Virus record (IMG/VR): IMGVR_UViG_3300031555_001562
Source: a virus
Taxonomy: Duplodnaviria; Caudoviricetes
Direction: 5' to 3' (one strand)
Length of the DNA: 64,000 nt
Of the stretch, positions 4,755 to 60,340 are shown one piece after another. The first letter of the stretch is position 1. Each line of letters opens with the position of its first letter. The position numbers and the translations under genes are program-made. The notes below the pieces were generated by a model. It was not told the DNA's origin. It ran no database searches and was given only the letters and a program-made list of their open reading frames with translations.

Positions 4755-7538
4755 ATGGAGCAGAAGAGCTGCTTAAAAATGATTTACAAAGTTCACAGCA
4801 GACAAATACTCAAAGCCAAACTCAATTTGGTGATGCCGCTTGAAACTGCTATGAGCGATTACCCTGAGATGATCGTCTCACTGAATGATAGTCAGCTGCT
4901 ACGGTTCATAGATGAACTGAACGGTGTGACGGAAGTCGATGAGAAGATCAGAGAGATTAAGAAGAAAATCAAGTTCGAGAAGAAACGACCACGGAGCAGA
5001 GAAACCAAAGTCAATATCAAGAACTTATATCGAAACCTGTATGAGCTGCAATTTAAGAAAGATTATGTCTGTGTAATCATGGACAGCAATGCAGACTATG
5101 ATCGCATCAACCAGGGATTCACGATCAACGGAATTCAGTTCCGGAGATTCCTCGGAACCAATGGTGGAATCAAGAATTCTACCATCGTGTATGTAAATGC
5201 AGAACTATATCCTGAATTGAAACGCAGATTGGACAACGGAAGAGACATGACTAAGGCACTGGTTCCTGCAAAGCTGGAGGCTTACCAGGCGCTCGTGTGT
5301 TCAGGTTCTACTCCGCTGCCGCCACCAAAAGGATTCATCGTTGTCAACGATTGCATTACCAAATTTACAGATGATGTGATCCTAATCAATGATGAAACAG
5401 ATGGTGAACCCGACTTGACGTATGTCAAAGACTATGAGATTGAACACAACGATTCTGACGGCTATGGCCTGATGCTACCCTCCTATTCTCGCAAGGTCAA
5501 CGAGTATTTGACTGGTGATGGAGAAAATACCATCTCCGGAATGAACACCCGGTATGCGTGGACTAAGGGCATGGTTTACACATTCGATTTCATTGAGTTT
5601 GCAGAGAAAATAGCTGGGACTTATGAGATCATCGACGCATGGGGCGACAAGAGGGATATCCGGGATGCAGAAGTCATTTTGACTGTATCTATGCTGAAGC
5701 TGTGGGACAGCTATTCGAGTTGGGAAGACTACTACGAGAATTGTGAGAAAAACCATTACCAGTTCTCTACACCAAAGATTACTCCTGCAAATCTGGAACA
5801 CGTTCGCAATACGAACTATCAGTTCCTCCAGAGTTACAATTTCACAGATGAAGAGCTGCAAGCACTGTGCCAGCCAACAATAGATGAAATCAAGGACGTT
5901 CTTGGCATGGACTACCGTAAGAGCCTCGTATTCCTTGCTGGCTATGGTCTGAATGATGACAATGCCTATACCGACAATTTCGATTACTGCATTCGTGCGC
6001 TTATGATCGATGAGCGGATGATTAATGATCCTTTCATTCGCCGCAAGATCTGGAACATGATTACACGCAGAATTGAAATGGCAAAGCGTGGCGCAATCAA
6101 AGTCAATGCAAACTTCGCTATGATTTCTGGTGATCCATATGCTCTGGCGCAAAGCATGTTCGGACTGGAAGTGACCGGACTGCTGAAGGCAGGAGAAGTA
6201 TATCACAAATATTGGATTGACAAGGGATCTACGGAGCTTGCTTGTTTCAGAGCGCCCATGACATGCCACAACAATATCCGCAGGATGAAACTCTGTCTGA
6301 CAGAAGAGGCTGCACACTGGTATCAATATATTACCACCGCCTCAATTCTGAACGCATGGGATACTGCGTGCGATGCAATGAACGGTGCAGATAAAGACGG
6401 CGATACCAATATGGACACCGATAATCCCGTGATCGTTCGCAACACACTCAACTCTCCAACAATCGTCTGCATGCAGCGCAAGGCAGAGAAAAAGGTTGCT
6501 ACGGAAGAGGATATCATTCAGGCGAACAAACTTGCGTTCAATGACGATATCGGAACGGTGACAAACCACGTTACGAGTATGATCGAGGTTCAGGCTGGTT
6601 TTGAACCTGGTAGTGACGAGTATGAGACTCTGGCCTATCGCATCATGTGTGGTCAGCTGTACCAGCAGAACACGATTGATCGTGCAAAGGGCATTATTGC
6701 AAAACCAATGCCTGAGTATTGGTATAACATCCGGGATAACATTGTCAGAGATGATGATACTCCGGAAGAGGCAGAGACTAAGCGGTATAACAGAAGAATC
6801 ACTGCGGCGAACAAACCATACTTCATGACATACGTGTATCCCAATCTTCGGACGAAGAACAATACATATATCAAGAACAGCGATTACGGCGCAATCATGC
6901 GGTTCGGCGGATACGGAATCCGTAGTATCAAGGATTTGGAAAAATATGAACCAAAGACTCAAGAGATGCTGGACTACCTTGATTACTACTATCGATACAT
7001 ACCAGTTGGCAACAATGCCTGTGTCGTAAATAGAATCTGCTGGATTTTTGAGAATGCATTCAACGGTTATCTATCAAAAAAATATGAGCAACCAAAATTC
7101 GATTACAACATTCTAAAGAGTAATGTTGAGTACAGTCGTAAGAACTATCTTGACATTCTTGCAGTATATGAGGACTATCAGCGCCGCATTGAAGCATTCC
7201 AGAAGAGATCAAAGGCAGAAAAACTTGATCTGTTCGATGCGTGGCAGGAGCGTAGCCGCCTTACTACCTGGTTCCGGAAGTCTTGCGAAGAAATTTGCTC
7301 AAACGAAAAAGAACTATGTGATATCGTGATCGATATCTGCTATAAGGCCGAGAAGACAAAACAGTTTGCATGGGATATTTGTGGATCAACTATGCTTGAC
7401 AATTTGCTTGCAAATAATGGCGGTGTGATTCATTATCCAAAGTTGACGGATTCTGATGGCGATTTCGTTTACTGCGGTGAACAGTTTGTTATGTGCGAAA
7501 AAGAGATTGGTGGTGATAGTGATGATTGTTTTGAATGA
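4755..7538 (+). CDS. yonO: YonO-like single-subunit DNA-dependent RNA polymerase (double-psi beta-barrel, eukaryotic RdRP-related)
   Basis: 927 aa with catalytic NGADKDGD (DxDGD), SDGYG, KGMV and FRAP motifs; lies upstream of late genes as in SPbeta. Confidence 0.88.
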   Translation: MEQKSCLKMIYKVHSRQILKAKLNLVMPLETAMSDYPEMIVSLNDSQLLRFIDELNGVTEVDEKIREIKKKIKFEKKRPRSRETKVNIKNLYRNLYELQFKKDYVCVIMDSNADYDRINQGFTINGIQFRRFLGTNGGIKNSTIVYVNAELYPELKRRLDNGRDMTKALVPAKLEAYQALVCSGSTPLPPPKGFIVVNDCITKFTDDVILINDETDGEPDLTYVKDYEIEHNDSDGYGLMLPSYSRKVNEYLTGDGENTISGMNTRYAWTKGMVYTFDFIEFAEKIAGTYEIIDAWGDKRDIRDAEVILTVSMLKLWDSYSSWEDYYENCEKNHYQFSTPKITPANLEHVRNTNYQFLQSYNFTDEELQALCQPTIDEIKDVLGMDYRKSLVFLAGYGLNDDNAYTDNFDYCIRALMIDERMINDPFIRRKIWNMITRRIEMAKRGAIKVNANFAMISGDPYALAQSMFGLEVTGLLKAGEVYHKYWIDKGSTELACFRAPMTCHNNIRRMKLCLTEEAAHWYQYITTASILNAWDTACDAMNGADKDGDTNMDTDNPVIVRNTLNSPTIVCMQRKAEKKVATEEDIIQANKLAFNDDIGTVTNHVTSMIEVQAGFEPGSDEYETLAYRIMCGQLYQQNTIDRAKGIIAKPMPEYWYNIRDNIVRDDDTPEEAETKRYNRRITAANKPYFMTYVYPNLRTKNNTYIKNSDYGAIMRFGGYGIRSIKDLEKYEPKTQEMLDYLDYYYRYIPVGNNACVVNRICWIFENAFNGYLSKKYEQPKFDYNILKSNVEYSRKNYLDILAVYEDYQRRIEAFQKRSKAEKLDLFDAWQERSRLTTWFRKSCEEICSNEKELCDIVIDICYKAEKTKQFAWDICGSTMLDNLLANNGGVIHYPKLTDSDGDFVYCGEQFVMCEKEIGGDSDDCFE

Positions 7539-8611: not shown

Positions 8612-9259
8612 GTGATTACGCTGAAGAAGAGTTTTGAGTTGCAGAACTATCTGAAGAGATTGTTCGATGATGCTCTGAGTGTCTTGTCCTACAATGACAA
8701 TATCACTGAGACCAAACAGGAACACATGCGAAAGAAAGTTCTGGCTGACGCAGAGGATGAGGTCGTTACCAAGCCTAAGCGTCATGAGTATGAGTTCGAT
8801 ATGAATACACTGATCGACTTTGCGTGCTACATTCAGGAGCAGATGTCAACCCTGACCACCGAGATCAATGTTGCAAAGTACAACAGTATCAGTGATCTTG
8901 ACGGCATGATCGCCGTGAACAACCAGAAGCGCAAGTTGCTGGAACGCATGGTCGCTATGTCTGCGGTTAAAGCCAGAGAGACCATTACCCAGGGACGTGG
9001 TGTGAAGTTCAATGGTGAGGGCAACCAGACTACCTACACCTATGATATCAAGGAGATCACCACTATCGACTTCGACCGGAATAAGGTCAAGGCAATCGCA
9101 AGTCGGCTGCGCCGTGAACTGGATGAGACCTCCACTGAGATCGACAAGATGATGCTGGAAACCAGTGTCTATTACGTCTCTATTTTTGAGATCGGTGATG
9201 ATCTGGAGGAAGCTGTCACGAAGTACCTCGACGAAAAGAACAAGGGTAATAACACCTAA
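8612..9259 (+). CDS. Coiled-coil protein, 215 aa, possibly DIP1984-like
   Basis: AAGGAG before GTG 8612; helical hairpins flank a beta-rich GRGVKFNGEGNQTTY segment; family call is from memory. Confidence 0.65.
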   Translation: MITLKKSFELQNYLKRLFDDALSVLSYNDNITETKQEHMRKKVLADAEDEVVTKPKRHEYEFDMNTLIDFACYIQEQMSTLTTEINVAKYNSISDLDGMIAVNNQKRKLLERMVAMSAVKARETITQGRGVKFNGEGNQTTYTYDIKEITTIDFDRNKVKAIASRLRRELDETSTEIDKMMLETSVYYVSIFEIGDDLEEAVTKYLDEKNKGNNT

Positions 9260-9269
9260 ATAAACATAT

Positions 9270-9825
9270 GCGGCTTATGTGAACCATCCTTCTAACTATA
9301 TACAGACTCTGCCGATTGAGTGAATCGGCTCCATACAAGATAAGGTTCAGAAATTTCCGCAATTTACAGTGACTACTATATAGAGGGCTGGAATATATTT
9401 TGATTTCAGTCGCTTCAGGTGCAGACGAAGTGTAGTGCTGCGCAGCTTTGGTGAGCTTATCGCCAGTATTGAATCATTTCAATAAAACTTTGATACTCGC
9501 TATCAAAATCTTTATACATACTTGGTTAAGCCAGATTGTAGGCTCCATTTTGAAGAAAGTAGTGCATGCGATAATCAAGGCCATAATCGATCTGCGTTCA
9601 ATACGTGAATTCCGTAATTCAACAATTCGAAATATCAATAACTCAATAATCGTTTCGCCAACATGATGGATCAAATATTTGGGTCAGTTAATGAAATTCT
9701 TAATAGATAACAATGCAAAAGAGGAATGATCTCTTCTGGATTAATGCAATTCGGATTTGGTCATCGATTTTTGATTAAATTGATTGGGTTGATTTGATAT
9801 TTCAGTCTTCTATATAGTAGTCACT
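9270..9825 (+). ncRNA. Candidate large structured ncRNA
   Basis: Multi-stem 5' domain (GCGG/CCGC, TGAACC/GGTTCA, GCCGATT/AATCGGC); 28-bp stem 9369-9396/9797-9824 whose only non-Watson-Crick pairs are three G-U; several internal hairpins. Confidence 0.65.
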
Positions 9826-9834
9826 TTTACATAT

Positions 9835-9921
9835 GGGCGAGTAGAGTGTAATTGGTATCACCCCGGACTGTAAATCCGGTGCTTTTAGCCACTGTAGGTT
9901 CAAGTCCTACCTCGCTCACCA
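9835..9921 (+). tRNA. tRNA-Tyr(GTA)
   Basis: GGGCGAG/CTCGCTC acceptor, CCGGA-CTGTAAA-TCCGG, long variable arm, CCA. Confidence 0.92.
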
Positions 9922-9925
9922 ATAT

Positions 9926-10001
9926 GGGTGGGTGGCGTACATGGTTGGCGCACCGGACTGAAAATCCGAGGACGTTGGTTCGATTCCAACCCCTCCCACC
10001 A
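9926..10001 (+). tRNA. tRNA-Phe(GAA)
   Basis: Cloverleaf, CTGAAAA loop, GTTCGATT T-arm, CCA. Confidence 0.9.
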
Positions 10002-10005
10002 ATAC

Positions 10006-10080
10006 GGCTCGTTGGTATAACGGTTATTATACCGGACTGTCTCTCCGGTGACATGGGTTCGACTCCCATACGGGTCGCCA
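10006..10080 (+). tRNA. tRNA-Asp(GTC)
   Basis: CCGGA-CTGTCTC-TCCGG, G73, CCA. Confidence 0.9.
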
Positions 10081-10083
10081 CAT

Positions 10084-10158
10084 GCAAGTGTACCCAAGTG
10101 GTTAGGGGCAGCACTGATAATGCTGTAGACGTGAGTTCAAATCTCTCCGCTTGCACCA
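10084..10158 (+). tRNA. tRNA-Ile(GAT)
   Basis: CAGCA-CTGATAA-TGCTG, CCA. Confidence 0.9.
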
Positions 10159-10257
10159 TACAGAGTTGCATAACTCTTACTTTTTTGGTTCTTCGGTAAA
10201 CCTGAAACCGATCTTGGAGACAAGGAGGAGTCTGCATAGATTCCTCATATCTGATAT

Positions 10258-10333
10258 GGCTCCTTAGCTCAGTCGGTAGAGCAACGGCCTGTTAAGCCGT
10301 GGGGCGAAGGTTCGAGTCCTTCAGGAGCCGCCA
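10258..10333 (+). tRNA. tRNA-Asn(GTT)
   Basis: ACGGC-CTGTTAA-GCCGT, GGCTCCT/AGGAGCC, CCA. Confidence 0.95.
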
Positions 10334-10346
10334 AATAATTCTCTAT

Positions 10347-10424
10347 GGGGCAGTAGACGAATTGGATAGAGTCACCAGCCTTTCACGCTGGAATTTGTGG
10401 GTTCGATCCCCATCTGCCTCACCA
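10347..10424 (+). tRNA. tRNA-Glu(TTC)
   Basis: CCAGC-CTTTCAC-GCTGG, CCA. Confidence 0.92.
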
Positions 10425-10431
10425 AATATAT

Positions 10432-10507
10432 GCCGATATAGCTCAATTGGCAGAGCAACTGATTTGTAATCAGTAGGTTGGGGGTTCAAGTCCGTCTATC
10501 GGCTCCA
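10432..10507 (+). tRNA. tRNA-Thr(TGT)
   Basis: ACTGA-TTTGTAA-TCAGT, GCCGATA/TATCGGC, CCA. Confidence 0.95.
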
Positions 10508-10513
10508 ACTGAT

Positions 10514-10589
10514 GCGGACATAGCTCAATTGGTAGAGCATCTGATTGCCATTCAGAAGGTTGCGAGTTCAAGCCTCGTTGTTCGCTCCA
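10514..10589 (+). tRNA. tRNA-Gly(GCC)
   Basis: TCTGA-TTGCCAT-TCAGA, U73, CCA. Confidence 0.93.
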
Positions 10590-10813: not shown

Positions 10814-12256
10814 ATGAGCAAGAAAAAGTTAAAAGGCGACGGCATCTTCTTTACCGGAAAAGCTTCCGAAGAGGTCACTGGATCTCAGTACCTGGTACGT
10901 TTTGGAGATTATCAGATCTTGCTGGAATGCGGATTGCACCAATCCAAAAGTAACAGCTATCTTGATTCTTACAAGATAAACTCCGAAAAATTTCAATTCA
11001 AACCGTCTGAAATTGATTTCTTGTTTGTAGCCCATCCTCATATCGACCATTGCGGCCTTATTCCAAAACTTGTGAAAGAGGGATTCCGTGGCAAGATCAT
11101 TGCAACACAAAATACCGCCACGATCATGAAACCACTTTTGCTAAATTCATGCTACATCCTAAGTGATGAGGCACGTCTTCTTTCGAAGCGATATAAAAGA
11201 GAATACAAGCCTTTATACGAAGAATCAGATGTTCATACTGCCTTGCGGTTAGTCAATGCTTACTGCGAGTACAATACAGTATATCAGCTAAATGAAACGA
11301 TCAGTTTCCAGTGGCTGAAGAACTCCCATTGTGTTGGTGCTGCGCAGTTGCAGCTTATCATGAGCGACAAGGGAAAAACGAGAAAAATCCTGTACACATC
11401 TGATATTGGCGCTCTACATACAAATAATCATTATTTGACGGATACTGAGATTCCTGCAATGTTTAACGATGTTGTTATCATGGAATCTACATATGGCGAG
11501 TCTAGACGAGATACAAAGAAAACCAGAGGCTTTGATGTTGAACACCTAAGAGTTTCAATTAACACCGTTCTTGAAAGGGGCGGCAGCGCAATTCTGCCAT
11601 GCTTCAGCTTTAGCAGAACGCAGGAGCTACTGACTACTTTGTATGATATCTATGGCTCAGACGAAAATTTCGCTACGCAGATCATTGTTGACTCAAAGCT
11701 GAGTTGCGACATTAGCAAGCTGTACTCATCTGTATTGGATGGGAAAGACCTTGAAATGTGGGAATCAGTATACAATTGGCAGAATGTCAAGTTTATATCC
11801 GAGAAAACTGACTCACAGCATTGTGTTGCCGATCCTACACCAAAGATTGTAATCTCTTCTTCTGGTTTCTGTACAAACGGAAGAATTGTGAATTACTTGA
11901 AACAATATTTGAAAGATCCGAACAGTATGGTGATCTTCTCCGGTTACACTGGCGATAATCCAACATACTTGTCATATAGAATCAAGAATTACAGAGAACA
12001 TAAATTCATCAGCATTAACAAAGAGCAAATTGCCAACAAAGCAGATTGTATTACTCTTTCAACCTTCAGTAGTCATGCAAATCACAGTGACCTAATCAGG
12101 TATGGTAGTTCACTGAATACAAACAAGGTGATCCTTGTGCATGGTTCTGCTGAGGGCAAAAAGTGTTTGTCCGAAAAGTTAAAAGAAGCAATCTCCAAAA
12201 ATGACAAGACATATCGTGTTATGTCTGCTTTCCGTGGCATGATTGTTCATTTATAA
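10814..12256 (+). CDS. MBL-fold beta-CASP ribonuclease (YSH1/CPSF73-like)
   Basis: HPHIDH, SHCVG, YTSDIG, MESTYG, RTQE, FSSHA and LVHG motifs. Confidence 0.9.
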   Translation: MSKKKLKGDGIFFTGKASEEVTGSQYLVRFGDYQILLECGLHQSKSNSYLDSYKINSEKFQFKPSEIDFLFVAHPHIDHCGLIPKLVKEGFRGKIIATQNTATIMKPLLLNSCYILSDEARLLSKRYKREYKPLYEESDVHTALRLVNAYCEYNTVYQLNETISFQWLKNSHCVGAAQLQLIMSDKGKTRKILYTSDIGALHTNNHYLTDTEIPAMFNDVVIMESTYGESRRDTKKTRGFDVEHLRVSINTVLERGGSAILPCFSFSRTQELLTTLYDIYGSDENFATQIIVDSKLSCDISKLYSSVLDGKDLEMWESVYNWQNVKFISEKTDSQHCVADPTPKIVISSSGFCTNGRIVNYLKQYLKDPNSMVIFSGYTGDNPTYLSYRIKNYREHKFISINKEQIANKADCITLSTFSSHANHSDLIRYGSSLNTNKVILVHGSAEGKKCLSEKLKEAISKNDKTYRVMSAFRGMIVHL

Positions 12257-59927: not shown

Positions 59928-60060
59928 TTCCGCTAACAACTGGTGGTTGCGCTCACCTAATGTTGGCAACACCACTAACTTCTGGAATGTCAACAACAAT
60001 GGCAACTTGAACAACAACAACAACGCCAGCAACTCTAATGGCGTGTGTCCCTGATTCTCA
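59928..60060 (+). repeat. DGR template repeat (TR)
   Basis: AAC-rich copy of the VR between avd and the RT gene. Confidence 0.95.
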
Positions 60061-60340
60061 TACATGAAGTAACCTAAAATAAGGGTGAAGTCTATTATTT
60101 GAGATATGAATGAGAAGGAGAATATAACCGTCCATATTTCAATATGGTAAATAATACGCACTTTTGCATTAAAGAGTGCATGCTATGACAGCATTCCGGT
60201 GCGGACGGGTGGACGCTTCTTGCATGGATCGGAAATGATTGCAATTCCGGTTTTCATACCCATATGCCTAGTAGCCATAACCGCAATCAAACAATAAGGC
60301 TATACGGAGGAATATCAAACAAACAGAAAGAAGTTAAACG

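Follow-up and report, generated by a model that had tools for sequence, protein, structure and literature searches.

A conserved pseudoknotted RNA family encoded directly behind a protein gene in gut phages and bacteria

Introduction

Apart from those of the translation apparatus, bacteria and phages have few large structured RNAs, most of them of unknown function. The stretch of phage DNA analysed here (the window, 64,000 nt in full) raises the question of whether it encodes another one. Between a gene for a 215-aa protein, p215, and an array of tRNA genes lies a region of about 560 nt, which a first-pass annotation of the sequence proposed as a candidate large RNA, perhaps a new one, closed by a 28-bp stem and possibly partnered by the protein upstream. 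We therefore asked whether the region specifies an RNA, how widely such an element occurs, and what its relation to p215 may be.

Results

A long closing helix in the window

The annotated stem was real and proved to be a 29-nt inverted repeat, 90% complementary, with its arms 400 nt apart. These arms (P1; Table 1) delimit a plus-strand element of 458 nt at window positions 9368-9825. Each of the three mismatches, read from the sequence, places a G opposite a T on the plus strand, exactly as the annotation had it. The longest ORFs within the element are 72 aa (+) and 66 aa (-); neither had a match in Pfam or PHROGs, and a search for tandem repeats in the element found none. Across the RNA family described below no ORF was conserved, and peptide similarities were restricted to close relatives and fell on both strands. 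A coding reading was rejected for these reasons, in keeping with the earlier view that the region holds no convincing ORF.

The interior of the element is AT-rich (GC 0.31-0.40). The inner hairpins noted previously, TGGTGA/TCGCCA (9449-9454/9460-9465), TATTGAA/TTCAATA and TTTGATA/TATCAAA, were all present and also appeared in the centroid fold. Fold energy was -131.8 kcal/mol for the plus strand (z -5.0) versus -107 for the minus strand (z -4.4). A compact 5' domain had been proposed at 9270-9360: this stretch folds modestly (z -2.2), and it is specific to one phage lineage and lies outside the family core.

Table 1. Positions of the p215 gene, the RNA element and adjoining features in the window
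Feature	Position	Strand	Evidence or remark
p215 gene, 215 aa, GTG start	8612..9259	+	Homologues directly upstream of every RNA copy with upstream DNA
Leader domain, two-helix stem, conserved loop AUCAUCCUUCUA	9260..9367 (108 nt)	+	Only in W-like phages (defined in the text)
P1 5' arm, closing helix	9368..9396	+	25/27 aligned pairs altered on both sides
P2 5' strand, partner 9781-9787	9406..9412	+	5/7 pairs compensatory
PK1 5' strand GCUUC	9412..9416	+	Co-variation of second pair
P3 hairpin (9419-9424 with 9438-9443)	9419..9443	+	All 6 pairs compensatory; loop holds GAAGU 9427-9431, the PK1 3' strand
Probable H-type pseudoknot PK2: AGC 9444-9446/GCU 9455-9457 and UGGUGA 9449-9454/UCGCCA 9460-9465	9444..9465	+	
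Seven phased 8-nt units, UUCnnnAA-like	9594..9649	+	Periodicity versus block shuffles
Near-invariant AAAUUG, then P2 3' strand (9781-9787)	9777..9787	+	Invariant columns, pair counts
P1 3' arm, closing helix	9797..9825	+	Inverted repeat and pair counts
Array of 8 tRNA genes	9835..10589	+	Begins 9 nt past P1 3' arm; probably co-transcribed

Terminal inverted repeats of 29 bp could also belong to a MITE or another mobile DNA inserted beside the gene, and a 5-nt direct repeat, TTTAC, flanks them in the window. The element was present once in the complete 163,674-bp IMG/VR phage genome, whose first 64 kb, on the reverse strand, make up the window, and the linked protein gene was single-copy in five bacterial genomes. 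Flanking direct repeats of at least 4 nt occurred in 8% of 48 loci compared to 5 ± 3% in mismatched controls; direct repeats were thus at background level, and the TTTAC flanks are attributed to chance. The element sits in the same place behind the same gene at every locus, where its arms diverge by compensatory change. Insertion of a mobile DNA is almost certainly the wrong explanation: of the signs that the first-pass annotation had named for it, dispersed copies were not seen and target-site duplications did not exceed background.

Homologous elements in phages and bacteria

Eight loci in IMG/VR encode relatives of the 215-aa protein, and each gene is followed by about 500 nt free of ORFs. 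Alignment of the eight stretches revealed the closing helix with compensatory changes, together with intrinsic terminators directly past its 3' arm. It also revealed a block, YCGCUUCAG...GCAGAYGAAGURUAGUGCUGC, that was 87-94% identical where the linked proteins share 36-42% identity. Co-varying structure was found, then, downstream of p215 homologues, where it had been proposed to look for it.

Viral, genome and metagenome contigs were scanned for the conserved block, and a hit was kept if a long inverted repeat was correctly placed around it. Helix scores separated real hits (at least 18) from chance hits (at most 13) and left 47 distinct elements. A protein profile search returned at least 140 viral loci in IMG/VR, 80 of which were retained. 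The pooled set comprised 77 distinct elements from viral, metagenome and MAG contigs, forming 49 clusters at 80% identity. Element length in this set was 348-537 nt (median 443), and P1 measured 20-39 bp (median 27).

The carriers included many uncultivated phages (genomes of about 90-215 kb) of Firmicutes from gut and rumen, as well as some bacterial chromosomes. Carrier MAGs came from gut and rumen and were assigned to Lachnospiraceae, Eubacterium, Roseburia, Clostridia and Veillonellaceae/Schwartzia. Neither the RNA (blastn) nor two family proteins (tblastn) had a match in 50,697 deposited phage genomes. Distribution was patchy: the gene and RNA were found, in single copy, in two of 301 sampled Lachnospiraceae species genomes. 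In one bacterial genus, 4 of 22 genomes carried them, in at least two different places; the genes flanking sites with and without the pair were not syntenic, so that insertion boundaries could not be read.

A conserved core with an H-type pseudoknot

RNAalifold applied to 16 diverse sequences returned three helices: P1 (27 pairs), P2 (7 pairs) and P3. P2 joins the bases directly 5' of CGCUUC to those directly 3' of AAUUG, and in the window phage and its closest relatives it may extend to 9398-9411/9782-9794. Across the 16 sequences, alignment cells of P1, P2 and P3 were paired in 95.9% of cases, versus 74.1% after shuffling of columns and 33-40% after sliding the partners by 1-3 columns. Change on both sides was seen at 36 of the 40 pairs.

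The two strands of PK1 seemed invariant until more distant members joined the alignment. The combinations then observed were GCUUC/GAAGU, GUUUC/GAAAU, GGUUC/GAACU, GGUUC/GAAUU and ACUUC/GAAGU. At the second pair, the 44 aligned sequences had C-G (33), G-C (8), U-A (2) or G-U (1), and none was unpaired. On this co-variation, PK1 is an H-type pseudoknot. The P3 loop that supplies its 3' strand is nearly invariant (consensus AYGAAGURUARYG). For the probable PK2, visual inspection picked out similar interleaving (GGNN...NNCC around a 5-9 bp hairpin) in roughly half of the clusters, and a crude automated test gave 9.2 bp, no better than the 8.4 ± 3.0 bp of shuffles.

The remainder of the interior was poorly conserved and could not be aligned across subgroups, which limits the family-wide elements to P1, P2, PK1 and P3. 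In one subgroup extra helices were supported, including a hairpin directly 5' of AAAUUG. The tract of 8-nt units reached a best-window periodicity of 0.58 at lag 8, a value attained in 0 of 200 block shuffles. A phased tract was significant in 11 of the 49 clusters, with a lag of 8 each time and in most cases in the same central place; by prediction it was no more single-stranded than the remaining interior. As judged from the alignments and periodicity scans, the interior is made up of a variable set of hairpins, with phased 8-nt units in part of the family.

Evidence for a plus-strand RNA that matches no catalogued family

In P1 across the 49 clusters, 106 G-U pairs on the plus strand stood against 28 A-C mismatches, the counterparts of G-U pairs if the minus strand is read instead (binomial p 7e-12, for clusters that are not phylogenetically independent). 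Strong intrinsic terminators followed the 3' arm at 10-35 nt in 11 of 34 clusters. In the window phage and the related loci L004, L040 and L080 (hereafter W-like phages) tRNA genes take their place. The element had the orientation of the upstream gene at all loci. The G-U excess on the plus strand, and the terminators or tRNAs 3' of the element, indicate an RNA of the plus strand. Base pairs are kept by compensatory substitutions on that one strand, as in structured RNAs generally; by this comparative evidence, 9368-9825 encodes a large structured non-coding RNA. The original reading of the repeat as an RNA helix rather than repeated DNA was borne out by the strand bias, the co-varying pseudoknot and the downstream terminators.

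We also considered a site acting at the DNA level that p215 would recognise, for instance in recombination, in single-strand initiation or as an origin of replication. Initiator genes often adjoin their sites, and the position behind p215 follows this general pattern. The interior is AT-rich, inverted repeats are the most striking feature, and a single-stranded DNA form of the plus strand would also be compatible with the sequence taken alone. A double-stranded DNA site is hard to reconcile with a pseudoknot that co-varies between junction and hairpin loop and with the preference for G-U over A-C on the gene strand. Fixed orientation to the gene at every locus, terminators after the element, and occurrence in bacterial chromosomes with no evident extra replicon also speak against a DNA site, and we judge it very unlikely.

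A cmscan of 9100-10000 against Rfam 15 at E<=10 returned only tRNAs and two chance hits. ROOL and GOLLD were absent from these results and had no hit at the gathering score in the whole 64-kb window, as expected if the RNA is new and lies outside both families. Taken with the homologue collection and the covariation, these searches indicate that the RNA family is real, widespread and uncatalogued in Rfam, with a defined core. A published IMG/VR catalogue of candidate structured RNAs contains motifs of 29-151 nt only (PMC10690425) and could thus include no more than fragments of this RNA.

The RNA and the p215 gene occur together

Linkage was assessed from both sides. Starting from the RNA, all 32 loci with upstream DNA encoded a p215 homologue on the same strand (30-65% identity), whose stop codon lay 7-190 nt before P1. 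Starting from the protein, all 78 loci with enough downstream DNA carried the closing helix, enclosing 389-537 nt and beginning 6-186 nt past the stop codon, mostly 11-25. The usual gap between gene and RNA in the family was 7-25 nt. No second neighbour of this kind was found: no other gene family was common to more than 7 of 34 loci. A YonO/RdRP-like polymerase gene lay upstream in 7 of the 34, distant lineages included, and a metallophosphoesterase gene was nearby in 3. In MAG and metagenome contigs the neighbours were ordinary chromosomal genes, among them FeoB, DnaX, histidine kinases, GH115 and glycosyltransferases. Some Lachnospiraceae carry the pair by itself between housekeeping genes: in one that is widely sampled (664 contigs) it stood alone between the purE-purD operon and a peptidase M29 gene, with a 533-nt RNA starting 11 nt past the stop codon and followed by a terminator-like hairpin. 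On this genomic co-occurrence, the RNA gene and the p215 gene are an inseparable two-part cassette, inherited together. As for the suggested partnership with p215, the genetic linkage held in every locus, and a physical partnership would be a further step that the linkage makes plausible.

The main rival to a partnership in trans is that the RNA is a cis-acting 3' UTR element that sets the level of p215 mRNA and has no trans function. Such control could run through RNase III cleavage of P1 and subsequent 3'-to-5' decay, as in lambda sib/int, or through feedback binding by p215. The RNA starts 7-25 nt past the stop codon in most loci, leaving no space for a promoter of its own; a terminator follows it, and linkage is strictly one-to-one. 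Known retroregulators such as lambda sib need far less than a pseudoknotted element of 350-540 nt, and the length of the RNA, its invariant pseudoknot core and its 20-39 bp helix far exceed what retroregulation requires. The transcript of W-like phages appears to continue into the tRNAs, and the core is 87-94% identical where the protein is 36-42% identical. We consider a purely cis-acting role unlikely.

p215 is predicted to form an intertwined dimer

The p215 sequence had no match in Pfam, PHROGs, NCBIfam or PADLOC, and no Pfam domain was found across 30 family members. In public metagenomes the family forms 1,636 or more clusters at a threshold of 90% identity; among the 120 matches listed, each source name shown was 'hypothetical protein', and Pfam domains were absent. 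Family members are acidic (pI 4.8-5.4, about 5.1; net charge about -7), with conserved basic residues at K5, R40, K42, K89 and R156.

The AlphaFold (AF2) model of p215 (pLDDT 92.5) shows five long helices plus a beta-hairpin (residues 122-150). Modelled as a homodimer, the protein scored ipSAE 0.61 versus 0.00 for the best control; runs shared at least 93% of their contacts, and the pLDDT of the partner was 86 or higher. In calibration, 20 of 30 proteins whose structures were solved as pairs attained the mark applied to dimers, as did 1 of 23 solved as single chains. The model supports a symmetric intertwined homodimer, and the predicted interface includes many invariant residues (H38, K42, Y142, Y144, D153, D155).

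Foldseek searches of PDB and BFVD with p215 gave nothing clear, 3kdq_A appearing at TM 0.45/0.60 and E 0.41. A PDB profile search yielded matches to a tail tube and a 'PVC protein', at no better than E 0.02. An exhaustive structural search (VIA-align) ranked 3kdq_A first (Z 10.5, rmsd 3.8 A, 146/152 residues), and the remaining rows spanned only a 60-residue helical hairpin. In the ESM Atlas, p215 matched a cluster at TM 0.62/0.76, 14% of whose members carry DUF6847. Going by the model, p215 would have a 3KDQ-type fold. A small-terminase reading, raised by weak Foldseek rows, was dropped: TerL and portal genes lie 7 kb away, and the cassette also occurs outside phages.

Comparison with known RNAs and protein-RNA modules

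ROOL and GOLLD are large ornate RNAs found in phages and patchily in bacteria, beside tRNAs in some phages (Weinberg et al. 2017, PMC5737381; Kretsch et al. 2025, PMC12286853). The p215-linked RNA resembles them in being several hundred nt long, multi-helical and pseudoknotted, in occurring in phages or prophages and patchily in Firmicutes, and in sometimes lying beside tRNA genes. It would fall in a loose ROOL/GOLLD-like class of large phage RNAs often beside tRNAs, with the qualification that tRNAs adjoin it in the W-like lineage only. Unlike ROOL and GOLLD, it has a closing helix of 20-39 bp, a core of the GCUUC/GAAGU pseudoknot and AAAUUG, and always one protein gene, whereas those RNAs are described as RNA-only homo-oligomers.

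The resemblance suggests an RNA that works without protein, either as a ROOL/GOLLD-like machine or as a decoy (a sponge for a host protein or nuclease), with p215 as a mere companion in the operon, for instance one that aids assembly or stability. An acidic p215 would suit this role, and size, pseudoknots, the spread through phages and patchily through bacteria and the tRNA neighbourhood in some phages are as this reading predicts. Linkage to p215 in 110 of 110 loci is not: according to PMC5737381, an obligatory protein gene is not part of ROOL or GOLLD. Similarity to the ROOL and GOLLD models of Rfam was also absent, and we regard an RNA-only function as improbable.

Ro60 (Rsr) and Y RNA offer a closer parallel in organisation, since a protein gene there has a dedicated structured RNA gene adjoining it, is patchy in bacteria and occurs in phages, and the 5' and 3' ends of Y RNA are paired as well. 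Unlike Ro60, p215 has no TROVE or vWA domain (no Pfam match in 30 members), and its predicted fold is helical with a beta-hairpin. The p215-linked RNA is three to four times longer than Y RNA and matched no Y RNA family in Rfam.

The best structural match of p215, 3kdq_A, is the structure of DIP1984 (3KDQ; DUF6847), a protein of unknown function. A link in sequence was not found: a whole-genome HMM search gave no PF20935 match over p215 and there was no NCBIfam (NF038048) hit, DUF6847 was not among the Pfam families listed for 30 p215 members, and hhalign against 8 DUF6847 proteins returned a probability of 0.3%. p215 is also about 60 residues longer than DUF6847 proteins.

DUF6847 genes were present in 22 of 201 Lachnospirales genomes, in single copy. 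At eight Lachnospirales loci (L235-L243), a conserved non-coding stretch lies within the 240 nt past the DUF6847 gene and is a candidate RNA, differing from the p215-linked one. Its features are a T-arm-like hairpin, GGUUCGAAUCC, units resembling GUUACA and an end of the form GAGGGUGGG...GGGG. The p215-linked RNA differs from these stretches in its larger size and long closing helix, and no motif in common was visible.

Evenly spaced short units beside the gene of an oligomerising protein recall TRAP and the trp leader, or HutP and the hut RNA, in Bacillus, a possible working analogy. The units here differ in having a period of 8 rather than 5-7, are degenerate and were detected in 11 of 49 clusters; the RNA is downstream and not a leader, and there is no relation in fold or sequence. 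Long perfect helices 3' of genes or around stable RNAs, such as lambda sib/int and the stems flanking rRNA, are RNase III substrates. P1 is similar in lying 3' of a gene and enclosing what may be a stable RNA, while sib is a simple hairpin and lacks a conserved 400-nt interior.

Two further systems were tried and set aside. Type III toxin-antitoxin modules (ToxIN-like) have repeats of about 36 nt upstream of an endoribonuclease toxin gene; here there were no tandem repeats, the RNA is downstream and PADLOC gave no hit. For retron msr-msd, Pfam and PHROGs scans of neighbours in the window and the examined loci found no reverse transcriptase, and an RT-2 RNA lies 50 kb away. No paper describing a p215-RNA or a DUF6847-RNA module was found in the literature.

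A possible ribonucleoprotein

Our best reading, held with moderate confidence, is that the RNA is transcribed on the plus strand as the 3' part of the p215 transcript and that the two products make up a dedicated ribonucleoprotein. RNA and protein would act together, assembling in cis as the RNA emerges behind its own mRNA. As far as alignments and the dimer model allow, p215 dimers may dock on the invariant pseudoknot core, on the phased units or on both. The long P1 helix would serve as a stability or processing module. RNase III could cut P1, and in the window phage RNase P could also cut at the tRNA-Tyr that follows; these cuts would release the RNA from the mRNA. Counting against a ribonucleoprotein are the acidity of the p215 family, unusual for an RNA binder; a phased tract significant in only 11 of 49 clusters, in an interior that is mostly poorly conserved; and the tight linkage, which fits a purely cis-regulatory 3' UTR too.

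More tentatively, and with greater doubt than hope, p215 and its RNA might represent one branch of a large undescribed superfamily in phages and bacteria, in which a dimeric protein of the 3KDQ fold has a dedicated pseudoknotted RNA encoded directly behind it. The protein would read phased units on an RNA scaffold, and the particle would do something for which no counterpart has been described, for instance in RNA metabolism or in the conflict between phage and host. Were the fold link to DIP1984/DUF6847 and the neighbouring RNAs real, a whole class of protein-RNA modules would lie unannotated as 'hypothetical protein plus intergenic region'.

Apart from these proposals, the collection adds a large structured RNA family that is common in metagenomes and sharply defined in architecture. 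Its obligatory protein gene, unlike the situation in ROOL and GOLLD, gives experiments a handle. At about 1.1-1.3 kb the cassette is compact and self-contained, and it is found in chromosomes of gut Lachnospiraceae as well as in phages; it should therefore be movable into a model host as one unit.

Other features of the window and of related loci

The tRNA neighbourhood stressed at the outset is confirmed for the window, and it is a trait of one phage lineage and not of the family: tRNAs follow the RNA only in W-like phages, and other lineages end in a terminator. Consensus scans for promoters and terminators between gene, RNA and tRNAs in the window gave counts not above shuffles, and no terminator was found between RNA and tRNAs. 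A promoter-like TTGATT-18-TATAGT at 9789-9818 (+), within the P1 3' arm, could drive the tRNA array; the count of such matches was not above shuffles.

The leader stem between p215 and the RNA was likewise common only to the window phage, L004, L080 and L040, with four compensatory pairs. Its loop at 9283-9300 (+) reads AUCAUCCUUCUA, is preceded by GCGGCU in the window and lies in the same place in the other three. The loop presumably resembles the 3' end of Firmicutes 16S rRNA with the anti-Shine-Dalgarno sequence, a likeness that could be chance.

Elsewhere in the window, a 927-aa protein encoded at 4755-7538 (+) matched the Pfam RdRP family (PF05183, E 2.9e-9) and may be a single-subunit RNA polymerase of the YonO type. 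Just past the tRNA array, the gene at 10814-12256 (+) specifies a beta-CASP/RMMBL ribonuclease (RNase J or CPSF type) and is conserved with the array in W-like phages. A full-length match to RT-2 RNA at 60055-60329 (+; RF03077, 80 bits, E 1.4e-16) suggests a reverse-transcriptase-linked element.

Two observations concern other loci. A sequence of about 110 bp between the p215 gene and the next gene of one locus (L110:2199-2308) had at least 10 copies on other contigs of the same genome, at 79-91% identity, and probably represents a short dispersed repeat that has nothing to do with the RNA. Among four otherwise collinear Lachnospiraceae contigs, two carried an inserted block of genes just downstream of the cassette (L231/L233:11372-16042), absent from L232/L234, which includes a gene for a Roc-COR/LRR GTPase of 1,096 aa.
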